Below, piece by piece: positions 5,878-36,127 of a stretch of DNA of 64,000 nt (the stretch's first letter is position 1; the number at the start of each line of letters is the position of its first letter). The translations under genes were made by a program, and so were the position numbers. The DNA comes from a bacterium. Lineage in GTDB: Bacteria; Patescibacteriota; Dojkabacteria; B142; OLB20. The notes beneath the pieces were generated by a model, which was given only the letters and a program-made list of their open reading frames with translations, was not told the origin of the DNA and ran no database searches. The DNA is taken from positions 6,105-70,104 of the forward strand of contig JBAXHO010000001.1 in the NCBI GenBank assembly GCA_037138855.1, given 5' to 3'.

Positions 5878-6582
5878 TTATTCCATCTCTAGTCTTGGGT
5901 GCCAGGTAGTATCAAGTTTGAGTATTTCATCCGGAGTGTATTTTACTTGTAGATATTTTCCATCCAGTTCGTAAACAGTAAACTGGTAATCAGTAATTAT
6001 CGGAAATAAGGTAGGGAAGAAGCTGCATTGGTTTTCATTACCTAGAAGTATTGAGAGCTTTTTCAGTTTAGCTGGTTCATCCTCCAGAGCATCAATTAAT
6101 GCATCCAACATGAGCTGACTACAGGTTTTTTTAGATGGGTTATATAAAGCTTGAGCTGGAGGATTAAGCATAGTTTTTAAATTTGTCTTAATTTGTGGTT
6201 TATGGTATTTGAGATAAAATAAATGTCCTAATACATTTGTAATACTGTATTTTATTCCTTTATCCTGAAACTCAAGGAGTTTTTGAATGTATTTTATTTG
6301 AATTTTTTTATTAAAAATTGTTTTTTGATAGCGATAAATATGGACGTATGGTCCCAATTCCTTGATTAGTTCTACAAAAGGGCTGACGATAATATTTTTG
6401 AAAGCGATAGTCTGAATCACCTTTTTCCTAGCTAAATATGATGCTGAATGAGCGATAAATGTACCTACAGGAAAGTATGTCAGTGTGCGTAACACATCGT
6501 TTATATTTAAACGGGTTAATAATACGTCACCCGGTTGAATTATTTTGTCAAAATTTTTAATTTTATTTGAGAGAACTTGCAT
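5878..6582 (-). CDS. Hypothetical; possibly a YiiX/DUF830-like permuted papain-fold (NlpC/P60-LRAT-like) enzyme
   Basis: GDVLLT...IAHSASYL (His) precedes ...KKTCSQLMLD (Cys), the order seen in permuted NlpC/P60 proteins. It overlaps the stop of the upstream acyltransferase fusion by 20 nt (same operon). Confidence 0.35.
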   Translation of the reverse strand: MQVLSNKIKNFDKIIQPGDVLLTRLNINDVLRTLTYFPVGTFIAHSASYLARKKVIQTIAFKNIIVSPFVELIKELGPYVHIYRYQKTIFNKKIQIKYIQKLLEFQDKGIKYSITNVLGHLFYLKYHKPQIKTNLKTMLNPPAQALYNPSKKTCSQLMLDALIDALEDEPAKLKKLSILLGNENQCSFFPTLFPIITDYQFTVYELDGKYLQVKYTPDEILKLDTTWHPRLEME

Positions 6583-9100
6583 GTTTGAAATATATTTCTT
6601 CCAAAAAATGAGTAATTTCTATAGCGGATAGATTTTTTGTTGGGTAAATTGGTTTTTCAATGATGAGTTTTACAATACCGCGCTTCTTAGGTCGATATTT
6701 TTGTGAAAAACTGCGATTATCATCATCATCACGGACTGGCCAAATTGTGTCATAACCTTCCAAATAGATTGGAAGAATCGGTTTGGAAAGCTCTTTAGCA
6801 ATATAGCCAATTCCGAAGTTAAATTTATTATGAAAACTATCTGTTTGTAATCTACCTTGAGGAGAGTAAAGCATATAATAGCCTTGTTCAAAGAGATCAG
6901 AAGAAAATTTCAGAATTTTAATTAATTTTTCAGCTTTCTCGTAAAGCGGGATTCCGCCACCAATGACTTCAAGTGCCTTGCCAATGATTTTCAAATTAAG
7001 ATTGTTACTAGTCCAATGAGTTTCTTTAGACAGTAAAAAACATTTTTTTAAACCAAATTGGTTTAGAGCTCGGAGTACACAAATACCATCAAGATAACCA
7101 CAATGATTAAATGAGGCAATAAAACCTTTGGAAGTATCAATTGTTTTAAAATTTTCTATTCCAGAAACTTCAAGTTTGGCATAATGTCCATGTAACGGGA
7201 AAATGATATTTTTTCTGATAGTTGATGTAAATGCTGTTCCTACTTTGCTAAACTGCCATTTTGGAATATATACTTTTTCTGTGACAGCCTGATTATTTTC
7301 AAGATATTTTTGCAGATCAGCGACAGTTGTCTTTGAGGTAATGATTGTCTCCGGGATTACTACCCCCAAATATTCTTCAATTTGGGCTACCAATTCTACT
7401 CTGGTTAAAGAGTCTAAATTGAGATCTTCAGAAAGGATATCTTCATTAGCAATAAATTCTTTTTTTAAACCTGATAAATTTGCAAGAATATCGAAAACGT
7501 TAACAATTGCAGTTTGTTCCTGATAATGTTCTGAGATAATCTGATTGTTTTCGATTTGCAGCGATGCTACTTTCCTCCGGTTTGTCTTCAGGGTATTGGT
7601 TCTGGGGAAATCATCCTCTGGCCATAAAGCATAATTACGGATTTGCTGTTTAGATTCTAAATTTTGATTGATTTCAGAAATAATGGTATCAAGGTTTTTG
7701 GTTGTATGAGATTCGAGAATCAAATATGAAAAGATTTGTGGTTTACCTTGAATTTCTTTTTCCAGCACGCAAGAATATTTTACATCCTGATGCTGGTCAA
7801 TTTTATTCTCTAAGTCTTCGACATAAATTTTTTCTCCACTAGCCAGGACAATTTTAAAAGTACTACGACCAGAGATAGTAAAAAAACCATTATTATCAAT
7901 TTTTCCAATATCTCCAGTATAATAACCGTTGGTTTTGAATGCTGCTGCTGTTTTTTCGGGATTTTCGAAATAACCTTGACTGACGGACTTACTTGTAATT
8001 ATTATTTCGTTTTCTGGTGAAAGAGTAATATTTACTCCGGTGATCGGTTTACCTGCTGAACCAAAACGGTAATGTTTTCGGAGATTGAGAGTAGCTACTG
8101 CTGTAACTTCAGTAGCACCATAGCCTTCCATAATTTCAAAGCCTAAATTATTCCAAATTTCGGCGATTTTTGTATTGAGTGCAGCACCACCAGTTCCTAT
8201 AAAGGCCAGATTATTACCAAAAGTTTGGTGTACTTCTTGGAAGATTTTTCTTCGTAAAAACTTTGGGAGATATTTGGCAATTTTCAGACCTTTTTCTAAT
8301 TTGCTTAATTTACCTTGTTCTGTAGCTTTTTGACGAATTCTTTGCCAAAATAAAGTGAAAAGTTGTGGTACAAAAACAAGGTATGATGGATTGAATTCAT
8401 TCATAGCTTCAGCGAGCTTGAAACTATTAATTCTAGGAAGATAAATAATTTTACCACCCCGGTAAAGAACTGTATAAAGACCAATAAGCTGCTCTAACAT
8501 GTGGCTTAGTGGCAGAATAGAAATTGTTTGATATATTTTTAATTTGGGAATTTCTTTATTCACAGCTTGTAAATTTTCTAAGATGTTTCTGTGTGTAAGT
8601 ATCACGCCCTTAGGTTCTCCGGTAGTACCAGAAGTATAAACTAATTCAGCAATTTGATCAGGATTTGAATTTGGTTCGTATGGTTTTCCGGTTGTCAATT
8701 CATCAAAAAGATCTTCAATAATGAAAATATTTTTTACCTGGAGTTTGAGAAAATCATATCTGAGATATTTTGAAACAAAGGCTATTTGAATCTTGGTTTG
8801 GGTAATAATTTTTGTAATAGTTTCATCACTATTTCGGTAATCAACTGGTACAGCAATTCGAGATGTATCAAACATACTCAATAGTAGAAGGGCATATTCA
8901 GGTGAATTCATCCCCCAGATTAAAACCTTGTCGTTTTTCTCGGTATTTTCTGCCAGGTATTTTGCATAAATACTTTGAATTAGACCAGGTATTTCTTGAT
9001 AGGTTACTTTACTATTGGTAATTTTGCGACGGATTTCAAAGCTGGTTTTTGAAGAGAATCGATCTGAGGCAAAAGTAATTAAATCATGAAAAATCTGCAT
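6563..9100 (-). CDS. Tridomain fusion: AMP-forming fatty-acyl ligase, acyl/peptidyl carrier domain, and PlsC-type lysophospholipid acyltransferase (Aas-like, domains in reversed order)
   Basis: Adenylation motifs YTSGTTGEPKGV, EGYGATE, YYTGDIGK...GR. Carrier motif LNLDSLTRVEL. Acyltransferase motifs FNHCGYLDG (HX4D), YSPQGRL and KPILPIYL. Confidence 0.85.
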   Translation of the reverse strand: MQIFHDLITFASDRFSSKTSFEIRRKITNSKVTYQEIPGLIQSIYAKYLAENTEKNDKVLIWGMNSPEYALLLLSMFDTSRIAVPVDYRNSDETITKIITQTKIQIAFVSKYLRYDFLKLQVKNIFIIEDLFDELTTGKPYEPNSNPDQIAELVYTSGTTGEPKGVILTHRNILENLQAVNKEIPKLKIYQTISILPLSHMLEQLIGLYTVLYRGGKIIYLPRINSFKLAEAMNEFNPSYLVFVPQLFTLFWQRIRQKATEQGKLSKLEKGLKIAKYLPKFLRRKIFQEVHQTFGNNLAFIGTGGAALNTKIAEIWNNLGFEIMEGYGATEVTAVATLNLRKHYRFGSAGKPITGVNITLSPENEIIITSKSVSQGYFENPEKTAAAFKTNGYYTGDIGKIDNNGFFTISGRSTFKIVLASGEKIYVEDLENKIDQHQDVKYSCVLEKEIQGKPQIFSYLILESHTTKNLDTIISEINQNLESKQQIRNYALWPEDDFPRTNTLKTNRRKVASLQIENNQIISEHYQEQTAIVNVFDILANLSGLKKEFIANEDILSEDLNLDSLTRVELVAQIEEYLGVVIPETIITSKTTVADLQKYLENNQAVTEKVYIPKWQFSKVGTAFTSTIRKNIIFPLHGHYAKLEVSGIENFKTIDTSKGFIASFNHCGYLDGICVLRALNQFGLKKCFLLSKETHWTSNNLNLKIIGKALEVIGGGIPLYEKAEKLIKILKFSSDLFEQGYYMLYSPQGRLQTDSFHNKFNFGIGYIAKELSKPILPIYLEGYDTIWPVRDDDDNRSFSQKYRPKKRGIVKLIIEKPIYPTKNLSAIEITHFLEEIYFKHASSLK

Positions 9101-9114
9101 TATGAAAGCGCAAT

Positions 9115-10047
9115 TTAATAATTAATAAAGCCAAGTTTTTTTGCTTCTAGATAAGAATATACTGGACTTAAACAATAATTGTTATCTTCGGCTACCCATT
9201 CAGCTAATGTTTTTTGAGCGATAATATTTTGGATCAGACTAATCACTGTTTCAGAAGTAGAAAAGTTATGTTGACTATAATCAGTTAGTTTATTTGTGGT
9301 ACAAAAATCATACCAAAATGCGGGTTCTAGAGCTGCTAAAACCATATAGCGATCATCTTTGGTTTTGTAGATATGGTAACAGGCATATTTGCCCCAAAGA
9401 GGCATTTCGTTTGGAGCAATATTATGTTCTAATTTAGCTTCTGCTGGTGCAGTTAGCGTAAAAAGATGCTGCATTGCCTGTAACATGGAAATATCTAGCC
9501 AGGTTGCTTTTCCGGTGATTTTTGTTGCTAAAATTTTATTTACAGCTTGATAACTTGTAATCACATCAGCAATTTGTACCGGTGGCAAAGGCATCTCTTC
9601 AGAATAGCGGGATTGATAGTCCAGATAACCACTGACTGCAAGAATATTTATATCATGTGCTGCCTTTTTACTTAACGGGTGTTCGTAGCCATAACCGGTA
9701 ATGGAACAGTAAATCAGATTGGGATTGATTTTAATTAAATCCTGGTAGCCTAAACCCATTTTATCCAGAAAATGCGGACGAAAATTTTCGATAATGGCAT
9801 CAGCGGAGCGAACTTCTTCAAGAATTTGTGCTTTACCTTGGTCACTGCGGAGGTCCAGACGAATTAATTTTTTATTTTTATTCAATTCCTGATAAATGAC
9901 ACTAATACCATTTTCAGTAGGTTGTAAATTTCGGAGTAAATCAAAATTGGCATCATGTTCAATTTTGATAATTTCTGATCCCAGTTCGCCGAGAATACTG
10001 GCTGCAAGAGGACCTGGTAACAGGCTGGATAGATCGATTATTTTCAT
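9115..10047 (-). CDS. CoA-transferase family III (CaiB/BaiF/alpha-methylacyl-CoA racemase family)
   Basis: N-terminal IDLSSLLPGPLAASILGELGSEIIKIE is typical of family III CoA-transferases. 14 bp upstream of the fusion gene on the same strand. Confidence 0.8.
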   Translation of the reverse strand: MKIIDLSSLLPGPLAASILGELGSEIIKIEHDANFDLLRNLQPTENGISVIYQELNKNKKLIRLDLRSDQGKAQILEEVRSADAIIENFRPHFLDKMGLGYQDLIKINPNLIYCSITGYGYEHPLSKKAAHDINILAVSGYLDYQSRYSEEMPLPPVQIADVITSYQAVNKILATKITGKATWLDISMLQAMQHLFTLTAPAEAKLEHNIAPNEMPLWGKYACYHIYKTKDDRYMVLAALEPAFWYDFCTTNKLTDYSQHNFSTSETVISLIQNIIAQKTLAEWVAEDNNYCLSPVYSYLEAKKLGFINY

Positions 10048-10517: not shown

Positions 10518-11255
10518 ATGTGCACAACCTTCGCCAAAAAAATCGACAATACTTGGTATCTCGGTAAGACTCGCGATCCTGTTAGTTGGATGCGTTGGGA
10601 TGATGAGATTAAATTGTTTGCAGAGGCAGGGGATAAATTCAGGAAATTGCTTGTGCAAAATCCCAATCCTAAAGAGGATGGTTATTATGGAGGTATTAAT
10701 GAAAAGGGTGTTGCTATAGTTGCTACCTATGTTAAAACAGCTGAAGAACAGGTTTCTTATATTCGACGTCCATACGTAAGATTAATTTTGGATGCTGCAA
10801 CTGCCGAAGAAGCAGTGGAAATTATTAAAAAATTTAATCCTTTAATCGGTGGCAATATGTTTGTGGCTGATAAAAAGAAGTGTTTCGGTATTGAAGGTGG
10901 CTCTAAAAGTATTTATGTGGAGGAAATTAAAGATCAGGCAGTGAAAACTAATCATTTTCTGCATTTGGATGAAGTTAATCTTAATTTTTCCAGATTACCT
11001 AAGTTTAAGGACTGGACTGAGGCTCATTTTGATCGGGCAACGGAATTACTTGGTGCAGCAAAAAGTCTGGAAGGTTTAGAAAATCTTCTGAAAGATCGCC
11101 AGGGCAGTGAATTGAAGCAGGCAATTTGTACGACAAGTGCCGAAGATGAATGCTATACCTATTCGGCGGTGATTTTCGATACGAACAAAGTAATTGCACA
11201 TTATGCTCAAGGGAACCCCAGTGAAGTGCCTTTTAAGGAATATAATTTTAAGTAA
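10518..11255 (+). CDS. Ntn-hydrolase with N-terminal Cys nucleophile (choloylglycine hydrolase / penicillin V acylase / C45-like linear amide hydrolase)
   Basis: Starts MCTTFAKK...; Cys2 after Met removal is the hallmark of this family. It is shorter (245 aa) than typical members. Divergent from the CoA-transferase operon. Confidence 0.5.
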   Translation: MCTTFAKKIDNTWYLGKTRDPVSWMRWDDEIKLFAEAGDKFRKLLVQNPNPKEDGYYGGINEKGVAIVATYVKTAEEQVSYIRRPYVRLILDAATAEEAVEIIKKFNPLIGGNMFVADKKKCFGIEGGSKSIYVEEIKDQAVKTNHFLHLDEVNLNFSRLPKFKDWTEAHFDRATELLGAAKSLEGLENLLKDRQGSELKQAICTTSAEDECYTYSAVIFDTNKVIAHYAQGNPSEVPFKEYNFK

Positions 11256-13547: not shown

Positions 13548-13814
13548 ATGTTGGAACTAATGCAAGTTAAATTACAAAAAATTGGAAATTCATTTATGGT
13601 TACCATTCCAAAGGCTTTGAAAGAGCAAGCTAAGTTACATTTAGGAGATATGCTGAACATTGAAATTGCAGAAAATTCTTTGCTGATCAAGCCAGCTGTT
13701 TTAGATAAACTTACCAAAGCTCAGGTTGAAGGTGGATTGTTACAAATTCCAAATTTTCACATTCAGAAAGTAATTCAGGAAATCAAAAAACGAGATTATG
13801 AAAGAGAAAGATAG
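13548..13814 (+). CDS. AbrB/MazE/SpoVT-type antitoxin (VapB-like)
   Basis: VKLQKIGNSFMVTIPKAL swapped-hairpin DNA-binding motif. It overlaps the downstream PIN gene by 17 nt. Confidence 0.6.
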   Translation: MLELMQVKLQKIGNSFMVTIPKALKEQAKLHLGDMLNIEIAENSLLIKPAVLDKLTKAQVEGGLLQIPNFHIQKVIQEIKKRDYERER

Positions 13815-14226
13815 TATATATGTTGATACTAATGTTTTTATTGCCTGGTTAGTAGCTAGTCACCCTGACTATAAACAAGCAAGATGTATTTTTAAACAAT
13901 ATTCTAAATATCAGTTCTATTATTCTTTATTAGTGATCGATGAAATACTGTTTGTTATGACAAAATATCGGATTAGTAAAAATATCATTCAAAATATTAT
14001 TAAATCTAACTTAATAGAAAATCCGATTTGTATTTTAATTGAAGATACAATTAATCATGAACAGATTGAGAAGTATTTAAATCTTTGGGTTAACTGTGGT
14101 TTGAAACCTAGAGATGCATTACATTACTATTATATGAAGAAGATGAAGATTACTACTATCGCCACTTTTGATCAGGATTTTATTAGACAACAAAAAAAAC
14201 TTGGTATAAAAGTTTTAAAATATTAA
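13798..14226 (+). CDS. PIN-domain toxin (VapC-like ribonuclease)
   Basis: IYVDTNVFI...D...E...ATFDQDF conserved acidic residues of the PIN fold. Confidence 0.7.
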   Translation: MKEKDSIYVDTNVFIAWLVASHPDYKQARCIFKQYSKYQFYYSLLVIDEILFVMTKYRISKNIIQNIIKSNLIENPICILIEDTINHEQIEKYLNLWVNCGLKPRDALHYYYMKKMKITTIATFDQDFIRQQKKLGIKVLKY

Positions 14227-15634: not shown

Positions 15635-15716
15635 ATACTTCTGATATTTCCTATTGACACCATAACATCATCTCGATAAACTAATTAAAAGTAGTTAATT
15701 TCTAATCTTTATTACT

Positions 15717-16169
15717 ATGTTGAGCGTCAATGCTTTATTTTCTAAATTACACGGTTTAGAACCTAAAAAAAGAAAAATGCTAGTTTTAGGATCTTTAGTA
15801 GGTTCATTTCTTTTTGTATTGATTGGGGTAGTTTTTGTCATAGCTAATCGTGGCAATATTACTTTACCGGAAACAGGAACTTATTCGATTGTGGTTGATA
15901 AGAATACTGATGAAGCTGGTTCTTGTGAGTTTGGAACCGATGTTAAAGCAGTTAAAACTTGTACTTTACGTGGGGCAATTAATAAAGCTAATACGCTGGG
16001 CACGAATAATAGTGTGAATATTACATTTGAATCAAATTTGGCTGATAGCAGTACCGGGGTTACGACAATTCAGCTGCAATCTCAATTACCAATCATATCT
16101 TCAGAGGCTTCAGTATTAATTTCTGGAAATAATTCTGATCCAAGTAAAGTAGTAATTAAGATGAACTGA
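15717..16169 (+). CDS. Membrane-anchored hypothetical protein; looks like the N-terminal start of a beta-helix surface protein (possible fragment)
   Basis: N-terminal TM helix, then CTLRGAINKANT...ISGNNS resembling the first rungs of the beta-helix domains of the neighbouring giant protein. Confidence 0.4.
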   Translation: MLSVNALFSKLHGLEPKKRKMLVLGSLVGSFLFVLIGVVFVIANRGNITLPETGTYSIVVDKNTDEAGSCEFGTDVKAVKTCTLRGAINKANTLGTNNSVNITFESNLADSSTGVTTIQLQSQLPIISSEASVLISGNNSDPSKVVIKMN

Positions 16170-16198: not shown

Positions 16199-19100
16199 AT
16201 GGAACCGCAGTCTGCTCAAAGTATCAATCATGTTGCTCAAATCCGTAAATATTTCCCGATAATTATCGTTACAGTGGTTGTTTTAGTAGCTGCTTTAGCT
16301 ATTGTTGTGGTACAACGCATTCGCATTAATAACCTGCCAAATACAGGTACTGATAATCCCATTCCTACAGTGCCGCCAACATGTGATTTGGTTTGCGCAG
16401 ATGGACATTTGGATCCAAATATTTGTAGCTGTGTGCCAGATGTCACGTCAATTATTTCAACGAATACACCAATACTTATAATGGGAAACTATTTGTTAAA
16501 AAGTATGAGTGTTAGTCTTGATCAGGCAACTGGAAACAATGTGATTACTTATAAAGTTCAAAATGATGGTACAGCAGAAATCGCAGGGAATAGTTTTCAG
16601 AATACATATTGGATAAATCCCGTTCCAGAGCCAAGTAGTATTAATAATATTCAACCTACTCAATCCTTATTTCAAGCTAAGATTTTAACCAGTCAAAGAT
16701 TAAGTGCTGGTACATCTGGTCTTGGGACTATTTCAATTAATAATTCATCCATACCAGCAGGGGTCTATAAATTATGTATGTGGTACGATAGCTCAAAAGC
16801 CGTTAATGAGGCTAATGAAAATGACAATATTCTCTGTAGTCAAGTTACTCTAGCTATACCAGAAGCACCGGCATGTACCTCATTTACAAATATGTGGATT
16901 AATGATTGTAATAGTACAGGGTTACTCGGCACACCTCAATGTGCTACTACTTCTGATAAAGCAACGATTCATTATAATTCCAATGCTGCAAGTATGAAAT
17001 TTCTGGATGCAACATCTATGCCAGGTATATTGTGTAGTGCAATTCCGGATAGTACTTTTACCGGACAATCACAAATCTATGATGCAAATAATCCGACAAT
17101 TAATTGGACCTTAACACCTGGATTTGGATTAAAAAAGATTTGTGTCAGATTTGAAAATAGTGCTGGATCAAGTAAGTGTGGAGGAACTATTAATTACACG
17201 GGTGTTACTCCAGTTGTTACTAATACAGCAATACCAGTAAGTCCACCTCAATGTACATCATTTCAAAATATGTGGATTGAAGGATGTCAGAGCTGGAACG
17301 CAGCAGATCCAACGGCAAATGCTAGCTGTATCACAAACAATACAAATGTTCAAATTAATTTGAATTCTTCTAATGCTACTACAATGAGGTTTTATGAAAA
17401 GACTGCGAATTTGGATATAGCATGTAGTGCCCTTGATCCTGGAGCATTTCCAGTGGTATTTCAAAGTTATTATCCAACACACAATATTACATTATCATCG
17501 ACACCAGGAGAGAAGCAGGTATGTGTGAGTTTAGGAAATAGTGCAGGGTCAAGCCAATGCGGAGGAAAGATCTGGTTCCAACCATCAATTACTCCTACAA
17601 TTTCTACAATACCTTCACCAACTCCGACACCTCAAGGGGCACCGGAATGTACATCTTTTGTGAATATGTGGCTAGAAAATTGTAAAACTAATCAGATGAC
17701 AGGTCCAGATTGTACAATTAATACAAACAAATTAAATATCAATTTAGCTGTACCCAATATTACAGCTGGTTCGAAGATGAGTTTTTATGAAAAAACGGCT
17801 GCGGATGATCCAAAGGTGCTTTGTAACTCGATTGATCCAAATAAATTTTCTACACCAGTAGATTATGCTACTCAGGTAAAAGATTACCAATTACAAGCCA
17901 CAACTGGACAAGTGAAGGTCTGTGTTCGTTTAGTGAATAGTAGTGGCGCAGCTAGTCAGTGCGGTGGTGGAATAAATATTGTAGAACCTGTGTATCGAAT
18001 TTTAAAAGTTGAATCAGGAGCTGTTGTGACACTTTCCGGTTTGACCTTGATGGGTGGTCGTGCTGATATTGGTGCAGCTATCGAGAATTTTAGTTTTCTT
18101 GAGATTAATAATAGTATTATTGCCAATAATATCGCTGATGTTTATGGTGGCGGTATTTACAATGAGGGATATCTTTCGGTGAGAAATTCTATTTTCCACG
18201 CTAACTCAATAGGAAATACAAATGGAGCAGGAGGAGCGATATATTCGAGAAATACAAATGGCGGATCTTATCTTCAAAACTCTTTGACTATTAGTAAGAC
18301 TATGTTTGAAGGGAATATTGCAGGGACAGGAGGAGGAGGAGCTATTTATTCAGAGGATACTCCAGTAATGATATCAAGAAGCTCTTTCAAATTAAATCTA
18401 GCTCCGAGTGGAGGCGCATTGTATCTAACAGCTATAAGGAGTAACGATATATTAAATAGAATTGATAACTCCACATTTGCAAGTAATACAAGTATGTATG
18501 GTGTAATAAATAATACCGGTTCCAGCAAACATGTCAGGTTAGATTTAATGTTCTCTACTTTTGTATCTGATTTACCAAGCTCAGCAAATAATTTCACACT
18601 TTATTCTGGTACAAATTCAGAAATCAATTTTAGGAATAATATTTTAGCAGCAAAGGGAGCTACTCAATGTAATTCCATTCCAAATAGTTTAGGTGGAAAT
18701 GTAATAATTGATAGTAGCTGTACAGTATTACCTGTAAGTAATAATGATATAGTTGGAACTCAAGTCAACCCACTGTTATCTGCAGAGCAGACCATACCAG
18801 GAAACAAGACAGTATTTTTCTCAATTGATCAAAGTAGTCCAGCATTTAATAATGCGATAAATTGTACAGGTACACCAATCGATCAACTTGAACAAACACG
18901 TCCTCAGGGAAGTGCTTGTGATAGCGGTGCTTATGAATTTCCAATACCAGTAACGACAACTGTGACACCCACGCCTGCTACAGTGGCGATGACTTGTAGT
19001 GAGGGATTTACAGATGATTTCGGGAGATTTATGATCGATAGTAGCAGATGGAAAGTAAATATTGCTGACAGTTTAAAAACGAGTGTGGAAATTAATGCTC

Positions 19101-22100
19101 AGGGAGGTATGCTACTAATTCATATTAAGAAAGATAATTTAAATTTTGATACAACTCCTAATGTTCAGCTACAGCGTTGGATAACAGGAAATTTTAATGT
19201 AGAAGTAGATATGCTCCAATGGCAAACACCATTACCATTAGATAAGAAAGATACAGCAGTGGCTGCATTCCAAATTGTAGATAATACAGGATATGTCAGA
19301 AAAATTTGGTTTGAAGCAGCAACTTTATCAGATGGGGTAACAATTGATCCGAATAATTATCTATTAGCTTCTGATTCATATAAATTTAAAATTTTAGTAC
19401 CAAGATATGGTTCGGTACGATTGAAGGCAATTAAAACAGGTGAAGAAATCTCATATTTTTATACGGTTTTAAATCGTAACGATGGTAGTACGACTACAGG
19501 TTTTATTGGAAAAGATACTGGAGTGAAGGGAGTAAATGTTATGCCAATAATGAAGATGTCATCACCTCTAGCAAATACTTTTGAATTTGATAATTTCACT
19601 TTAAATTGTGATCAGGCAGTACCGGTATGTACATCATTTCAAAATATGTGGATAGAAGGATGTCAGAGTTGGAATGCAGCAGATCCAACGGCAAATGCTA
19701 GCTGTATCACAAACAATGCAAATGTTCAGATTCATTTAAACTCTCCTAATGCCAGTCAAATGCAGTTCTATGAAAAAACTGCAAACCTAAATATACCATG
19801 TAGTGCGCTTGATCCTGGTACATTTCCTCCAGAACAATATTATTCTTCAACACAAAATATTACATTATCATCGACACCAGGAGAGAAGCAGGTATGTGTA
19901 CGATTAACTAATAGTAATGGGTCAAGCCAATGCGGAGGAAAGATCTGGTTCCAACCATCAATTACACCTACAATTTCTACAATACCATCACCAACTCCGA
20001 CACCTCAAGGGGCACCGCAGTGTACATCTTTTGTGAATATGTGGTTGGAGAATTGTAAAACTAATCAGATGACAGGTCCAGCTTGTACAATTAATACAAA
20101 CAAATTAAATATCAATTTAGCTGTACCCAATATTACAGCTGGATCGATGATGAGTTTTTATGAGAGAACGGCAGCAGATGATCCCAAGGCTCTATGTAGT
20201 TCCTTTGATCCAAATAAATTTTCTACACCAGTTGATTATGCTACTCAGGTAAAAGATTACCAATTACAAGCTACAACTGGACAAGTGAAGGTCTGTGTTC
20301 GTTTAGTGAATGGTAGTGGTGCTGCTAGTCAGTGCGGTGGTGGTATTAATATTGTAGAACCTGTGTATCGAATTCTTCAAACTGCTGTAAATACAAATGT
20401 TACACTATCAGGAATTACTCTGCAGGGAGGTAGGGCAGATGGAGTTGGAGGAGCAACTATGGGTGGAGCTATAGCTAACTATGGAATTATGAATTTGAAT
20501 AATTCTATTTTAACAAATAACTCTGCGGTTTCTTCAGGAGGTGCAATATACAACGAAGGTATGCTTAGGATAAACGCTTCAAGAATATTTGCAAATACTA
20601 CTAAAGGGACTGGAATTGGTGGTGGAGGAGCAATTTATAACAATGGTACTCAATTAAACATTAGCACTTCAGCGCTAAATAGTAATCAATCTGGATCTGC
20701 CGGAGGAGGTGCGATTCTTTCTCGAGGTAGTGAGGTAAATATTTTAAAAAGTTCCTTCAAAGATAATATTACTACTGGTTCTGGAGGTGCTCTGAATTTC
20801 TTCAATGATCATGCCAGTATTCTGAAAAACATCATTATTAACTCTACATTTGCAGATAACTCTGTGCAATCAGGAGAAATCTATTCTAATGCAAGTTATC
20901 AATATAGTTTAGTGACAAATATTTCATTTTCAACTTTTACTTCAAAGAGTTCTGGGTCAAATACACTAGGAACAACATTGTTTGCAACTGGAAAGTCGGA
21001 AATGTTTATTAAAAATAACATTATCGCTGATAATCGTACAACTCAATGCAATTCACCTTTATTGATCGATAGTTCTGGAGGTAATGTGGTCTTAGATAGA
21101 TCATGTTTACAAGATCCAAATAATTTGAATGGCGATATTATTCAAAATCCAAAATTACAAGTTGAGGCTTCAAATGTAAATTATTATTCAGTTGCATATC
21201 CTATTGATCTTACTAGTCCAGCTGTTGATGCTGTTAAGGATTGTATGGATCTCGATATTACAACAATTGTCGAAGATCAGTGGGGTAGAGTAAGACCAAA
21301 TGGTAGTCTTTGTGACAGTGGTGCTTATGAATTTCTAATGGATGTGACACCTACTATTTCCACAATACCTTCACCAACCCCAACTCCAGTGGGAGCACCA
21401 GCATGTACATCTTTTGTAAACATGTGGATTGAGAATTGTAATGATAGTCAGGTTCCTGCTGGTCTTTGTACGGTATATAAAAATCATGTAACAATTCATT
21501 TGAATACGACAAATGCTAGTATGATGAGTTTTTATGAAAGGACGGCAGCAGATGATGTCAATGCGTTATGTAGTTCATTTGATCCTACTAAATTTTCGCC
21601 ACGAGTAAATTATGCTTCACAAGTAGATAATTTTCTATTGCATGCAACACCAGGGAAAGTAAAGGTATGTGTACGATTTGAGAATAGTAATGGAGCAGCG
21701 AGTCAGTGTGGTGGAGTGATTATTCTTGGAGATGCAATACCTACAGTGACACCATCCGTTACTCCTGTGCAGCCAAGTAATACTGTGATGCCATCAGCTA
21801 CAGCTGGGGTACAAAATAGTAATACACCGACACCAATTCGACCATCAAATACTGCTTCTGTCCCGACTAATACGAGGCCAGTGGTATATTACAGCGCGAC
21901 ACCTAGACCAACAACAAATGGCATAGTGACACCGACTATAACCGGTACAATTACCATAACTCCCAGTGGTTCGATTACAGTTACTCCGACAATAAAAGTA
22001 ACTGTCACTAATACTGGTACAGTGACACCTACAACAACGAATGGCGGTGGAATTTTAGGAAACTTTGATTTTGGTACATTTTTCTCCGACTTATTAAGTG

Positions 22101-22240
22101 GTAAGGCTTCACCATGGGGTTATCTTGGAGTAGCGCTTTGTTGCTTGTTCTGGTTGATATTGCTCTTATTATTAGTAGGATTGTTACGTCGCAGAAAAGA
22201 TGAAAATGGTGCCAATGCCATGTTTACTAATCAGATTTAG
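16199..22240 (+). CDS. Giant (2013 aa) surface adhesin: N-terminal TM, 6 copies of a ~120-aa 4-Cys domain (CTSFxNMW...QCGG), two polymorphic-membrane-protein (Pmp GGAI/FxxN) beta-helix regions, a lectin/LamG-like domain, a Thr/Pro stalk, and a C-terminal TM with RRRK stop-transfer
   Basis: Repeated GGAIY / GGGIYN / FHAN / FEGN / FKLN motifs. Six CTSF(Q/V/T)NMW(I/L)E..C modules. C-terminal TPTITGTITITPSG...LGVALCCLFWLILLLLLVGLLRRRK. Confidence 0.8.
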   Translation: MEPQSAQSINHVAQIRKYFPIIIVTVVVLVAALAIVVVQRIRINNLPNTGTDNPIPTVPPTCDLVCADGHLDPNICSCVPDVTSIISTNTPILIMGNYLLKSMSVSLDQATGNNVITYKVQNDGTAEIAGNSFQNTYWINPVPEPSSINNIQPTQSLFQAKILTSQRLSAGTSGLGTISINNSSIPAGVYKLCMWYDSSKAVNEANENDNILCSQVTLAIPEAPACTSFTNMWINDCNSTGLLGTPQCATTSDKATIHYNSNAASMKFLDATSMPGILCSAIPDSTFTGQSQIYDANNPTINWTLTPGFGLKKICVRFENSAGSSKCGGTINYTGVTPVVTNTAIPVSPPQCTSFQNMWIEGCQSWNAADPTANASCITNNTNVQINLNSSNATTMRFYEKTANLDIACSALDPGAFPVVFQSYYPTHNITLSSTPGEKQVCVSLGNSAGSSQCGGKIWFQPSITPTISTIPSPTPTPQGAPECTSFVNMWLENCKTNQMTGPDCTINTNKLNINLAVPNITAGSKMSFYEKTAADDPKVLCNSIDPNKFSTPVDYATQVKDYQLQATTGQVKVCVRLVNSSGAASQCGGGINIVEPVYRILKVESGAVVTLSGLTLMGGRADIGAAIENFSFLEINNSIIANNIADVYGGGIYNEGYLSVRNSIFHANSIGNTNGAGGAIYSRNTNGGSYLQNSLTISKTMFEGNIAGTGGGGAIYSEDTPVMISRSSFKLNLAPSGGALYLTAIRSNDILNRIDNSTFASNTSMYGVINNTGSSKHVRLDLMFSTFVSDLPSSANNFTLYSGTNSEINFRNNILAAKGATQCNSIPNSLGGNVIIDSSCTVLPVSNNDIVGTQVNPLLSAEQTIPGNKTVFFSIDQSSPAFNNAINCTGTPIDQLEQTRPQGSACDSGAYEFPIPVTTTVTPTPATVAMTCSEGFTDDFGRFMIDSSRWKVNIADSLKTSVEINAQGGMLLIHIKKDNLNFDTTPNVQLQRWITGNFNVEVDMLQWQTPLPLDKKDTAVAAFQIVDNTGYVRKIWFEAATLSDGVTIDPNNYLLASDSYKFKILVPRYGSVRLKAIKTGEEISYFYTVLNRNDGSTTTGFIGKDTGVKGVNVMPIMKMSSPLANTFEFDNFTLNCDQAVPVCTSFQNMWIEGCQSWNAADPTANASCITNNANVQIHLNSPNASQMQFYEKTANLNIPCSALDPGTFPPEQYYSSTQNITLSSTPGEKQVCVRLTNSNGSSQCGGKIWFQPSITPTISTIPSPTPTPQGAPQCTSFVNMWLENCKTNQMTGPACTINTNKLNINLAVPNITAGSMMSFYERTAADDPKALCSSFDPNKFSTPVDYATQVKDYQLQATTGQVKVCVRLVNGSGAASQCGGGINIVEPVYRILQTAVNTNVTLSGITLQGGRADGVGGATMGGAIANYGIMNLNNSILTNNSAVSSGGAIYNEGMLRINASRIFANTTKGTGIGGGGAIYNNGTQLNISTSALNSNQSGSAGGGAILSRGSEVNILKSSFKDNITTGSGGALNFFNDHASILKNIIINSTFADNSVQSGEIYSNASYQYSLVTNISFSTFTSKSSGSNTLGTTLFATGKSEMFIKNNIIADNRTTQCNSPLLIDSSGGNVVLDRSCLQDPNNLNGDIIQNPKLQVEASNVNYYSVAYPIDLTSPAVDAVKDCMDLDITTIVEDQWGRVRPNGSLCDSGAYEFLMDVTPTISTIPSPTPTPVGAPACTSFVNMWIENCNDSQVPAGLCTVYKNHVTIHLNTTNASMMSFYERTAADDVNALCSSFDPTKFSPRVNYASQVDNFLLHATPGKVKVCVRFENSNGAASQCGGVIILGDAIPTVTPSVTPVQPSNTVMPSATAGVQNSNTPTPIRPSNTASVPTNTRPVVYYSATPRPTTNGIVTPTITGTITITPSGSITVTPTIKVTVTNTGTVTPTTTNGGGILGNFDFGTFFSDLLSGKASPWGYLGVALCCLFWLILLLLLVGLLRRRKDENGANAMFTNQI

Positions 22241-22284: not shown

Positions 22285-22327
22285 AAGTCCTCGGTAATCA
22301 ATTGTAAGATTACCGAGGACTTTTTGT
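22285..22327 (+). terminator. Rho-independent terminator of the giant adhesin gene
   Basis: GTCCTCGGTAATC aattgtaa GATTACCGAGGAC TTTTTG. Confidence 0.75.
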
Positions 22328-25608: not shown

Positions 25609-27612
25609 TTAAACGTGATGTTGGAATTTTGGTATTAACAACAATAGGCGTAGCGTATGGACCTGTAATGGAGTGTTTGTAGGTACATTTGTAGTAACTA
25701 GAATAGTTGTATTAGTAGGTAAGATTGTAGCAGTGGTAATTGGAGTAGTTGTACTAGTAGGTAAGATTGTAGCAGTGGTAATTGGAATGATTGTACTAGC
25801 AGGTGTGCTTGTAGGTATGAGAGTTGAAACTGGTGTATTGGTTGGAGAGTTGGTTGAAGTTGGGACAGCTGTAGCAAATGGAGTAGGAGTAGGTGTGTCA
25901 GTCAGAGTGGGTGTTGGCGTTGGGCTGGGATTTTCCTGGTAAGCACCGATATTTGTCCCGTCATTAGCACTAGAAATGATTGGAGAGCCAATGTTCGGTG
26001 TACTGCATAAAATAACTCTATCTCTCAGTTGCTCAATCGGCAGAGCCAATAATTGCGCTCTGCTACACTGGCTTTCATCAGAAATTGTAGGATTGGTATC
26101 CATAAATTTAGAATGAAACTCATATGCCTGCTGTTCGTTATACGGGTCATTGTTTAGGCATTTGATAGCAAGAGAACCCAACCGCACTACACAGGTAGTA
26201 CTATCAGTTTTCGTTTTCGGATAGTATGCATTAAAATCGCTCTCAGCAGGTAAATAACCAGCATATGAATAAACATGATATTCACCTCTTGTAATGCCTG
26301 AGCCAGAGACTCTCCTAGCGCCTATCATCAAGTTATTCATTATTACATTTTCGATCCCAGGATAAGAAAGTGATTTTATACTGGTGTATTCACTAACATT
26401 TCCTGAAGTCTCACTGATACCAACAATAGTATTATTCTTTATGATATTTGCTGCAGATCTTTCAGTTATACTAATTCCATTGGCATTGTAAGTAAACTGC
26501 GCCCAGGAATAAAGATAATTATGGTGAATATTGTTTTCATAAGATGCCATATATGTTGGAACACTTTCGGAATTTAAGTATTTGTAGGCTTCGACTCTAT
26601 CGCTACCGGGGTCAGAAGGGGATTCACTCATTACCCGAATTCCATTGTTGGGAGAACCAACTATTACATTATCAGTGATTTCGTTATTATGTCCGCGGAC
26701 ATCTATCTCGCTTCCCTCAACAAACTGCCTAGTTGCTGATATAGTATTACCACGAACAATATTATTTCTTGTATCAGGCTTGAGCTCAACTGCCTCATTC
26801 CAGGAGTTAATAATATTATTATTTTCAATTACATTGCCTTCGACCCAGGTCCGGCTAAAGCCTTGTTCCGGAGACCAACAGTTTCCCGACACCACATTGC
26901 CGGCACTACCGACATAGAAGCTTTCATCTAAATTTTCAATTGTATTATTACTAAATGTACTATTTATAGTTTTGCATATTGAAAAACCTGTATTTTGACT
27001 ACCATCATGTTCTACTATGGTAACTCCATTTTTATCGTGTCTTCCTTTAACCTCACCAATACCGAGGCTGGAATAGTATGTGCAACCGGCATATTCGCCT
27101 ATTTCACTCGGGCTACAATTACCGTCAAATCCTAAATGAATGTAGTTATTTTTTATAGTTAGATCTGAAGAGATATAAATTGGAAATCCCGAACGGGAAA
27201 TATCAACAATCTCAAAGCCATCTATAGTAATATATGATGAATTTACCAGCCTAATGCCTGAATAGCCTTTGAGAACTGGTCTTTGATCAGGATCATAAGC
27301 CTTGAGAATAATATTATTTCCGAGTGCACCATGTTTATTGACAAAAGAAGCGACTTCGCCATAGATATTATTGTCAGACTGAGTATAATTCCCGGGTATT
27401 ACAAGAATTGTATCGCCCGGAGCGCTTGTCATATCTATGCCTTTCTGTATTGTCTTGAATGGAGTCGAAATTGATAAGCCTGAATTGGAATCATCTCCGT
27501 CAGGTGCAACGTAATAAGTAGAACTGGCAAAGACCGGAACTACAAAAAGGCATAATAAAAGAAAAGCACTAATTATGGCTAATCCGTATTTCAATTTGAT
27601 AACTGAAAACAT
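25609..27612 (-). CDS. Secreted right-handed parallel beta-helix (pectate-lyase/NosD-like) repeat protein with a TP-rich stalk; the 3' end appears frameshifted into the 25160-25600 ORF
   Basis: Signal peptide MFSVIKLKYGLAIISAFLLLCLFVVPVFASS. Repeated N-rich beta-helix rungs (NNTI, GNVIEN, NNIV). Tandem 42-bp DNA repeats encode PITTATILPTSTTT. The last ~20 residues look like out-of-frame garbage. Confidence 0.7.
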   Translation of the reverse strand: MFSVIKLKYGLAIISAFLLLCLFVVPVFASSTYYVAPDGDDSNSGLSISTPFKTIQKGIDMTSAPGDTILVIPGNYTQSDNNIYGEVASFVNKHGALGNNIILKAYDPDQRPVLKGYSGIRLVNSSYITIDGFEIVDISRSGFPIYISSDLTIKNNYIHLGFDGNCSPSEIGEYAGCTYYSSLGIGEVKGRHDKNGVTIVEHDGSQNTGFSICKTINSTFSNNTIENLDESFYVGSAGNVVSGNCWSPEQGFSRTWVEGNVIENNNIINSWNEAVELKPDTRNNIVRGNTISATRQFVEGSEIDVRGHNNEITDNVIVGSPNNGIRVMSESPSDPGSDRVEAYKYLNSESVPTYMASYENNIHHNYLYSWAQFTYNANGISITERSAANIIKNNTIVGISETSGNVSEYTSIKSLSYPGIENVIMNNLMIGARRVSGSGITRGEYHVYSYAGYLPAESDFNAYYPKTKTDSTTCVVRLGSLAIKCLNNDPYNEQQAYEFHSKFMDTNPTISDESQCSRAQLLALPIEQLRDRVILCSTPNIGSPIISSANDGTNIGAYQENPSPTPTPTLTDTPTPTPFATAVPTSTNSPTNTPVSTLIPTSTPASTIIPITTATILPTSTTTPITTATILPTNTTILVTTNVPTNTPLQVHTLRLLLLIPKFQHHV

Positions 27613-35625: not shown

Positions 35626-36113
35626 GGGGATGTATGGCTTCGACAGGGAATATTACTGGTTTTTGGCAAGCCGAGGTTTTTGGATACGGAGTCCTCGTAA
35701 AACAAACTGGTCCTCCGGTTATTTTGACCGGGCCGCATAATAAGCGTCAAAACCAAATTTCAAGATTTCGTTGCTGGCGTACAGGGCACAGTTGCAGCTA
35801 TCGCTGCTTCCTTTGCTCCTGCATTAGCTTTCAACGGAGTTGTTGCCTAAACTGGAGTTTCTCCAGGGATAAGCGCGAAAGCGCGGTAACCTTCTAGTGT
35901 TCTTCTCTCCTGATGGGAGGCACTAGGAGAAACATAGTCAGGATACAAGACTTAGCAATAGCATTCTGCTAAGTCCCACGCAAAATGTCTGCTGGCGGGA
36001 ATTGGTTTTAGCTTACTTCTATCAACTTCTCGTCTAAAAATCCAAGTAAGCTACGCTTGTACACTGAGAATCGGTAAGTTTTCTGGACGCGGGTTCGATC
36101 CCCGCCATCTCCA
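35626..36113 (+). ncRNA. ssrA: tmRNA (ssrA), one-piece, CCA not encoded; unusually long (~488 nt)
   Basis: 5' end GGGGAUGUAUGGCUUCGACAGGG (acceptor plus tRNA-like D region). PK1-like GCCGAGG...CCUCGUAAAAC. Ala-rich tag frame ...GTVAAIAASFAPALAFNGVVA followed by UAA. 3' end GGACGCGGGUUCGAUCCCCGCCAUCUCCA (T-arm plus acceptor). 5' GGGGAUG pairs with 3' CAUCUCC. Confidence 0.7.
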
Positions 36114-36127
36114 TAAATTTTGCCTGC

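Follow-up and report, generated by a model that had tools for sequence, protein, structure and literature searches.

The question raised by this locus is whether a very long reading frame of a Patescibacteria bacterium encodes a new kind of surface adhesin or a large arrangement of known parts. The frame occupies positions 16199-22240 of the window (the whole stretch of 64,000 nucleotides that was analysed) on the forward strand, as do all features described below, and it encodes 2013 amino acids as a single ORF. Its product is identical to NCBI MEI7578426.1, which is labelled [quoted passage not shown], and it is a singleton: among 15 billion proteins no orthologue with more than 50% identity was found. 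The preliminary description had listed two transmembrane (TM) segments, two Pmp-type beta-helices, six Cys-containing modules, a lectin-like domain and a Thr/Pro stalk. The ORF and this order of domains proved to be real, and the membrane segments, helices and stalk were recovered by hydrophobicity, motifs and composition, respectively. What the list lacked were a borderline CARDB-like domain and two choice-of-anchor-Q caps.

A Kyte-Doolittle scan of the protein shows exactly two strongly hydrophobic segments. The first (aa ~19-38, 16253-16312) would be either a signal-anchor or an uncleaved signal peptide, judging from its sequence. The second (aa ~1972-1996, 22112-22186) is a C-terminal TM helix followed by a basic tail, RRRKDE. 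The last 168 aa gave no NCBIfam match (E <= 0.1) to a C-terminal sorting signal, and inspection of the C-terminus reveals neither an LPXTG nor a PEP motif, but the hydrophobic helix and the basic tail only. This helix is preceded by a stalk recognised by its Thr/Pro/Val/Ser-rich composition (aa 1846-1970, 21734-22108). Behind the N-terminal helix lies a short Cys cluster, CDLVCADGHLDPNICSC (aa 62-78, 16382-16432). A similar C..VCADG motif also occurs at the N-terminus of P0100, a protein that bears the Cys-rich module described below. The adjoining CARDB-like beta-sandwich (PF07705; aa 112-212, 16532-16834) is a borderline assignment, with 21.7 bits against a cut-off of 22.7 for the segment and 17.3 bits in the whole-protein scan.

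The ORF is followed by a terminator-like hairpin with a 10-bp stem, a 10-nt loop and a T-run (22289-22326). It was read from the sequence, as the automatic hairpin scan has a loop limit of 8 nt and hence missed it. Upstream lies a 150-aa ORF (15717-16169) that contains a TM segment. It also has a CSLREA-like cap (CTLRGAI), which scores 15.7 bits against TIGR04214, below the cut-off of 25. This ORF resembles a truncated head of the beta-helix family found in the giant ORF, with which it may be co-transcribed. That the two are one frameshifted gene is not favoured, since the giant ORF possesses a start and an N-terminal TM helix of its own.

The six modules carry the signature CTSFxNMW...[KQ]CGG, which starts at aa 226, 352, 484, 1144, 1275 and 1736. 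They cover aa 223-335 (16865-17203), 349-462 (17243-17584), 481-596 (17639-17986, preceded by the linker TPTISTIPSPTPTPQGAP), 1141-1253 (19619-19957), 1272-1387 (20012-20359) and 1733-1845 (21395-21733); the DNA of module 6 is 72-74% identical to that of modules 3 and 5. They had been described as a novel four-Cys module. However, six cysteines are invariant across 73 module copies from 61 proteins, with the spacing C-x10-C-x9-15-C-x~30-C-x~32-C-x11-12-CG, and this invariance suggests that they may form disulfides.

The claim of novelty holds in part. Searches of Pfam (E <= 10) and NCBIfam (E <= 1) returned no match to the modules, and PDB sequences no meaningful one. An exhaustive HMMER search of 1.84 billion proteins found about 60 family members, each standing for one 50%-identity cluster; all are metagenomic, and all are "hypothetical" or unnamed. 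The module is a real family that is uncurated in Pfam and NCBIfam. A word-indexed search of a 5.8-billion-protein set with the module alignment gave no match and also missed the query protein itself, and four pattern matches in a genome scan with a module alignment yielded no confirmed copy. Among 80 Patescibacteria loci (1.2 Mb), a six-frame HMM search detected modules in this ORF only. What did not hold is the absence of relatives. Structure prediction gives the module an Ig/Fn3/PKD-like sandwich fold, and it aligns collinearly with a common bacterial Ig-like repeat (hhalign 99%, E 4e-18 over 63 columns), to which it is also linked by HMMER cross-matches. On this profile evidence, the module is related to a very common Cys-free repeat and differs from it by its cysteines. 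Across the family, the module is found alongside extracellular enzymes and anchors (PL8 lyase, BNR_4, dockerin, cohesin, M64 peptidase and Laminin_G_3), usually in 1-3 copies beside enzymes and not in long tandem arrays.

The protein has two right-handed beta-helices. Helix 1 (aa 597-857, 17987-18769) has Pmp-type GGA[ILV] and FxxN repeats and passes into a choice-of-anchor Q domain (NF041518; aa 858-914, 18770-18940) that ends in CDSGAYEF. Helix 2 (aa 1388-1671, 20360-21211) was assigned by its motifs and its likeness to helix 1, and it is capped by a second such domain (NF041518; aa ~1671-1712, 21209-21334). The two motifs are confined to these regions (three GGA[ILV] and five FxxN in helix 1, five and three in helix 2). 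The PF02415 search that had been proposed earlier bears out the Pmp-type character, as helix 1 scores above the cut-offs of both PF02415 (26.6 bits versus 20.6) and TIGR01376 (16.4 versus 15); helix 2, with 15.8 bits, stays below that of PF02415. NF041518 (cut-off 25) matches the whole protein with 65 bits in two stretches, and the single units with 40.4 and 30 bits. The 152 helix homologues, at ~25-35% identity, are labelled CSLREA, "predicted outer membrane repeat protein", PF02415 or PF13229, and most of them contain PF02415. By sequence, both helices are members of the widespread CSLREA/Chlam_PMP-repeat/choice-of-anchor-Q class. We know of no ligand for any helix of the CSLREA/choice-of-anchor-Q type. 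MAGs labelled Chloroflexi, Anaerolineales and cyanobacteria (Rhizonema) encode members of the family too, as do a great many environmental metagenomes. Pmp repeats had been called typical of host-attached lifestyles; since the same family is common in free-living phyla, such a helix is not diagnostic of host attachment.

The region between the two halves (aa 929-1139, 18983-19615) had been called lectin-like. Its predicted model shows ConA-like fold matches, but at low confidence (pLDDT 54.8), and we thus assign a ConA-like lectin/glucanase fold tentatively. A word-indexed search of the 5.8-billion-protein set with this domain found no match, missing the query protein as well, and a PDB sequence search with helix 1 plus this region gave no meaningful match.

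The gene contains a long internal repeat. Copy A (17251-18007) covers modules 2-3 with the linker and reaches 7 aa into the helix, and copy B lies at 19627-20381; these blastn borders agree with those given earlier (~17250-18000 and ~19630-20380). A blastp self-comparison of the protein gave no off-diagonal matches, and pairwise alignments were used instead. The repeat had been taken for a recent, tandem-like duplication of more than 95% identity. However, the copies are 89.6% identical over 758 columns (959 bits, E 0.0), in a patchy manner (73-98% per 60 nt), and about 89% of the codons are identical. The copies are dispersed rather than tandem: they start 2376/2373 nt apart, in frame, and are separated by helix 1, its choice-of-anchor-Q domain and the lectin-like domain. 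A dS of ~0.32 rules out a recent duplication of the cassette, and a dN/dS of 0.24 indicates purifying selection on the copies.

An artefact of assembly had to be considered here, as the gene is carried by one contig only of a short-read metagenome assembled with MEGAHIT (k141) and contains direct repeats of 757 bp, so that the repeat or even the whole long ORF might be collapsed or chimeric. We regard this as very improbable. The copies differ at ~79 of 758 positions and share no exact run longer than 60 bp, which is below k=141 and typical read length, so that they can be resolved in assembly; the collapse suspected earlier is ruled out on this ground. In addition, the frame is intact over 6 kb, the differences between the copies carry the signature of purifying selection, and the flanks of both copies run in frame into diverged paralogous helices.

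We propose a history of nested internal duplications for this gene. The two halves, whose helices are now 40% identical (helix 2 unit versus helix 1 with its cap, over the whole unit, E 2e-54), would go back to an old duplication of a module-module-helix-cap unit. A later duplication or gene conversion would have been limited to the two-module cassette, with sharp borders. The cassettes lie in frame at a distance of 2376 nt, so that a 792-aa block could in principle be lost or gained through recombination between them. It is tempting to go further and to suppose that the six-Cys family is a distinct, disulfide-locked specialisation for the extracellular proteins of ultrasmall or uncultured bacteria and that the cassettes, which are partly homogenised, serve as recombination substrates for switching the helix-lectin block of 792 aa in or out. 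We think this rather unlikely; if it were true, a host-attachment protein of a CPR episymbiont would thereby vary in length or antigenicity.

As to function, we consider it probable that the product is a large, doubly anchored surface protein of a Patescibacteria (CPR) bacterium, with adhesion or glycan binding, on a polymer surface or another cell, as its most likely role. It would be held in the cytoplasmic membrane by the C-terminal TM helix with its basic cytoplasmic tail, and probably by an N-terminal signal-anchor too. From the N-terminus, the ectodomain would consist of the CARDB-like sandwich, three six-Cys spacers, the Pmp-repeat helix with its choice-of-anchor-Q cap, the probable ConA-like domain, two spacers, helix 2 with its cap, the sixth spacer and the Thr/Pro-rich stalk. 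The Ig-like modules and the stalk would act as rigid, extended spacers that project the binding surfaces, namely the helices and the lectin-like domain, off the cell. It is chiefly the placement of the organism among the Patescibacteria that makes adhesion plausible here. Nearly all of the best relatives of CysS (53-63% identity) bear the label of a Patescibacteria/CPR lineage (Dojkabacteria, Microgenomates, Parcubacteria and others), some only a generic or apparently automatic one.

The same architecture could also belong to a membrane-tethered enzyme that degrades polysaccharides, in which one or both helices would be catalytic in the manner of pectate lyases, or the ConA-like domain would resemble GH16 or PL7, with the Ig-like modules as spacers or carbohydrate-binding units. 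Right-handed beta-helices are a classic fold of glycan-active proteins, and the company kept by the module family fits this picture: it includes PL8 lyases, BNR_4, a pectate-lyase-like helix, dockerin and cohesin, and a GH18 gene adjoins one module protein. However, scans of the protein and its parts gave no match to a CAZyme or lyase family model, the helix is of the Pmp/CSLREA repeat type, for which we know of no catalysis, and the model of the middle domain (pLDDT 54.8) is too poor for seeking catalytic residues. We thus hold an enzymatic role to be unlikely. Less likely still is a structural envelope or S-layer-like protein that is anchored at both ends and recognises no specific ligand. 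Anchors at both termini, a long row of rigid beta domains with a stalk, and the fact that highly repetitive surface proteins contain relatives of the Ig-like repeat would all suit such a component. Yet a conserved envelope component would not be expected to be a singleton without a close orthologue, and lectin-like and Pmp-type domains typically serve binding.

Patescibacteria in cultivation live as obligate episymbionts, and how they bind their hosts is largely unknown (bioRxiv 10.1101/2024.11.25.624915); for this reason large surface proteins such as this one are reasonable candidates for host binding. The practical yield is modest. The six-Cys Ig-like family of ~60 proteins is cleanly delimited and rare and could enter domain libraries, and the gene documents a build-up through nested duplication. 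The protein is less unusual than the preliminary description had assumed: it is no new kind of system, every part besides the six-Cys module belongs to a known class, and NCBI already labels the protein choice-of-anchor Q.

Among known systems, the CSLREA/choice-of-anchor Q proteins (NF041518, TIGR04214, PF02415 and PF13229) resemble it in that both helices here end in an NF041518 domain. Typical members have 400-950 aa and one helix. Unlike them, the giant protein places two helices among six Cys-rich Ig-like modules and a lectin-like domain, and the N-terminal CSLREA cap (TIGR04214) is absent from its ORF and weakly matched in the separate upstream one.

As in the chlamydial Pmps, the rungs of a right-handed beta-helix bear GGA(I,L,V) and FxxN tetrapeptides; in Chlamydia pneumoniae such repeats mediate adhesion (PMC2997323). 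Neither the whole protein nor its parts gave a Pfam or NCBIfam match to an autotransporter beta-barrel or a Pmp middle domain. Chlamydial Pmps are type V autotransporters, whereas the giant protein is anchored by a TM helix and ends in a stalk and a single TM helix. Patescibacteria are a group without a classical outer membrane. Because the protein has no beta-barrel and a TM helix at its C-terminus, it is not a chlamydial Pmp autotransporter; by analogy, it plausibly works like a Pmp passenger domain without being a member of the family.

In the adhesin-like proteins of methanogens, TM anchors (at both termini in some cases) occur together with a right-handed beta-helix and repeated Ig-like "Big" domains, with occasional carbohydrate-binding domains and, in a few proteins, Chlam_PMP repeats (PMC11532034). 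They share the building logic of the giant protein, as an architectural analogy only: their origin is archaeal, and the Ig-like domains in them (ABD) form a different, Cys-poor family. Closest to the modules is the common Ig-like repeat of ~93 aa with the consensus DxxxPxGxxxINxGAxYT...SNDG..WS.WE.Y..K.W.L..GDG.KTVYV.F.D.AGN, which weakly matches Big_13 (PF19077), Big_7 (PF17957), the OmpL47-type domain (NF047446) and the SiiE BIg domain (2yn3). The six-Cys module shares the predicted Ig/Fn3-like sandwich with this repeat, but is distinguished by its six invariant cysteines, its longer N-terminal part and its rarity.

A single ORF on the + strand (16199-22240) encodes the giant protein of 2013 aa and is followed by a hairpin with a 10-nt loop and a T-run, read from the sequence, at 22289-22326. 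NCBI lists an identical protein under MEI7578426.1 ('MAG: choice-of-anchor Q domain-containing protein [bacterium]'), a singleton cluster whose source is one 88.9-kb MEGAHIT contig (ENA assembly ERZ27300156). The ORF is real, and the preliminary description of it is largely correct but oversold. The domain order it gave was found throughout: six modules of the form CTSFxNMW...[KQ]CGG start at aa 226, 352, 484, 1144, 1275 and 1736, GGA[ILV] and FxxN motifs are confined to two helix regions (helix 1, aa 597-857; helix 2, aa 1388-1671), and a Thr/Pro-rich stalk lies N-terminal to the C-terminal helix. Exactly two strongly hydrophobic 19-mers are present (aa ~19-38 and ~1972-1996), the second directly followed by RRRKDE.

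The DNA encoding modules 2-3 (17251-18007) was compared with that encoding modules 4-5 (19627-20381). By blastn of the ORF against itself, these two-module cassettes are 89.6% identical over 758 columns (959 bits), and not >95% as had been stated. The identity is patchy, ranging from 73 to 98% per 60 nt and falling to background exactly at both borders. The copies had also been called tandem-like and recent, but their starts are 2376/2373 nt apart, both distances being divisible by three, and dS is 0.32, so the duplication is older than stated. With dN at 0.076, dN/dS is 0.24 (Nei-Gojobori), with tighter constraint in module 3/5 (0.09) than in module 2/4 (0.29); purifying selection acts on both copies. 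Runs of 40-60 identical bases could support occasional homologous recombination between the cassettes; no variant is known.

Helix 1 and helix 2, each taken with its choice-of-anchor Q cap, are 40% identical (E 2e-54). The gene therefore grew first when a [module-module-helix-cap] unit was duplicated long ago; subsequent duplication or gene conversion was restricted to the two-module cassette. Modules 3 and 5 are 72-74% identical to module 6 at the DNA level, and a linker, TPTISTIPSPTPTP[Q/V]GAP, lies immediately N-terminal to each module of this 3/5/6 subtype (~17585-17638, ~19958-20011 and ~21335-21394), so that the duplicated unit was linker plus module. One useful yield is this clear case of a gene, for a candidate CPR surface adhesin, that was built by nested internal duplication.

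Each module has six invariant cysteines, rather than the four counted before, and this invariance would correspond to three disulfides per module. The module had been reported as not recognised, and indeed nothing in Pfam, NCBIfam or the PDB sequences matches it. When 1.84 billion representative proteins were searched exhaustively with HMMER, 193 matches in two classes were obtained. The full-length class comprises 73 module copies in 61 proteins, nearly all with exactly six Cys and with the family consensus PxCxSWxxxxINxC...C.T....VTL.L....AT.MRF.N......C......WS....Y.....WTL..G.G.KKVCV.F.N..G....CGG.I. These unnamed proteins come solely from metagenomes, and most have no other Pfam domain; partners found in some are PL8 lyase, BNR_4, dockerin, cohesin, M64 peptidase, a pectate-lyase-like helix and Laminin_G_3. 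On each of two independent contigs (L082, 4195-7380; L083, 2675-5860), the gene for P0003, a protein with two modules, lies directly 3' of a gene of the GH18 (chitinase) family. Members of the module family are thus associated with extracellular proteins that act on glycans. The partial matches sit where a very common Cys-free repeat of ~93 aa forms long arrays; this repeat itself weakly matches Big_13, Big_7, the NCBIfam OmpL47-type domain and SiiE BIg. Because profile-profile comparison links this repeat to the six-Cys family (99% probability, E 4e-18), the module is a Cys-decorated, uncurated offshoot of bacterial Ig-like domains and not a new fold. The other useful yield is a rare six-Cys Ig-like domain family, so far uncurated.

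In the whole giant protein, Pfam gave nothing beyond a weak CARDB match, whereas NCBIfam matched choice-of-anchor Q (NF041518) twice. The helices were scanned separately with cut-offs of 20.6 (PF02415), 15 (TIGR01376) and 25 bits (NF041518). Helix 1 scored 26.6, 16.4 and 40.4 bits, respectively; helix 2 scored 15.8 bits with PF02415 and 30 bits with NF041518, and had no match to TIGR01376. With aa 590-1143 as the query, 152 homologues were found (about 25-35% identity), aligned over the helix part only. They are labelled CSLREA domain-containing, 'predicted outer membrane repeat protein' or choice-of-anchor Q, carry PF02415 and/or PF13229, and some come from Chloroflexi, Anaerolineales and one cyanobacterium. 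From these labels and sources, the helices are members of a widespread environmental family with the Pmp repeat, one that is common and already recognised in NCBI annotation. No solved structure related by sequence to helix 1 and the lectin-like region was found among the PDB sequences.

The lectin-like middle domain (aa 929-1139) matched no family model, and a word-indexed search, in which the query protein itself was likewise missed, gave no homologues. At 20% identity it can be aligned collinearly to the part of P0100 that follows the module; P0100 is a 472-aa protein consisting of one module, this domain and a stretch that matches dockerin weakly, below threshold. A C..VCADG......C.C motif follows the N-terminal hydrophobic segment both in the giant protein (aa 62-78; 16382-16432) and in the unrelated P0100 (aa 26-45), and may be a small N-terminal element common to the two.

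Housekeeping genes (L28, PGI-like, CysK, CysS) adjoin the giant gene. The nearest relatives of CysS (53-63% identity) are nearly all labelled as Patescibacteria/CPR lineages (Dojkabacteria, Blackburnbacteria/Roizmanbacteria of the Microgenomates, Parcubacteria, Buchananbacteria, 'Saccharibacteria'), some labels being generic or apparently automatic, and the window is therefore assigned to a Patescibacteria bacterium without a close sequenced relative. Upstream of the giant gene, at a distance of 30 bp, lies a 150-aa ORF (15717-16169, +) with a promoter-like site 5' of it (15654-15682). It encodes a TM segment followed by a cap that resembles CSLREA (CTLRGAI; TIGR04214 15.7 bits, under the cut-off of 25). 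Its product can be aligned to the N-terminal end of P0226, one of the beta-helix homologues, and the ORF looks like a CSLREA-type helix gene of which only a truncated head is present. A second right-handed beta-helix protein of 667 aa (25609-27612, -; Beta_helix PF13229, NosD, TIGR03804 para_beta_helix) is encoded 3.4 kb downstream; it contains no six-Cys module and looks unrelated. Upstream of the L28 gene lies a MazE-antitoxin/PIN-domain toxin-antitoxin pair (~13548-14226, +; Pfam labels). The cluster of an 845-aa AMP-binding, PP-binding and acyltransferase protein (6563-9100, -), a CoA-transferase family III protein (9115-10047, -) and an AAT-family acyltransferase (10518-11255, +) is unusual in a reduced genome. 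A tmRNA gene (35626-36116, +; Rfam RF00023, 112.7 bits) has the predicted tag AAIAASFAPALAFNGVVA, and ARAGORN found no tRNA genes in the whole 64-kb window.

The giant protein begins with a basic stretch and a TM helix, continues through ~1930 aa of beta domains and closes with another TM helix and a basic tail. This topology would fit either two membrane anchors with the ectodomain as a loop between them, or a signal that is cleaved off and an anchor at the C-terminus alone. By analogy, the protein is best read as an adhesin or glycan-binding protein: binding would fall to the beta-helices and the lectin-like domain, with the stalk and the Ig-like modules as spacers. This reading is unproven; it is made plausible by the obligate episymbiotic life of cultivated Patescibacteria, whose binding to hosts is little understood (bioRxiv 10.1101/2024.11.25.624915). 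The protein could instead be a membrane-tethered polysaccharide-active enzyme, which we consider unlikely. A structural role in the envelope is less probable still. We give very little credit to an assembly artefact: a risk of collapse at the repeat had been raised, but is unlikely because the longest identical run (60 bp) is well under the assembly k of 141.

The adhesin or glycan-binding reading also draws on known systems. In chlamydial Pmp passengers, FxxN/GGA repeats mediate adhesion (PMC2997323), an analogy that backs this reading. Chlamydial Pmp identity was rejected for the helices, as Pfam scans found neither an autotransporter barrel nor a Pmp middle domain in the giant protein, which is instead anchored by a TM helix. 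Methanogen adhesin-like proteins combine a right-handed beta-helix and Ig-like repeats with TM anchors, sometimes at both termini (PMC11532034), and are a second analogy that backs the adhesin or glycan-binding reading.
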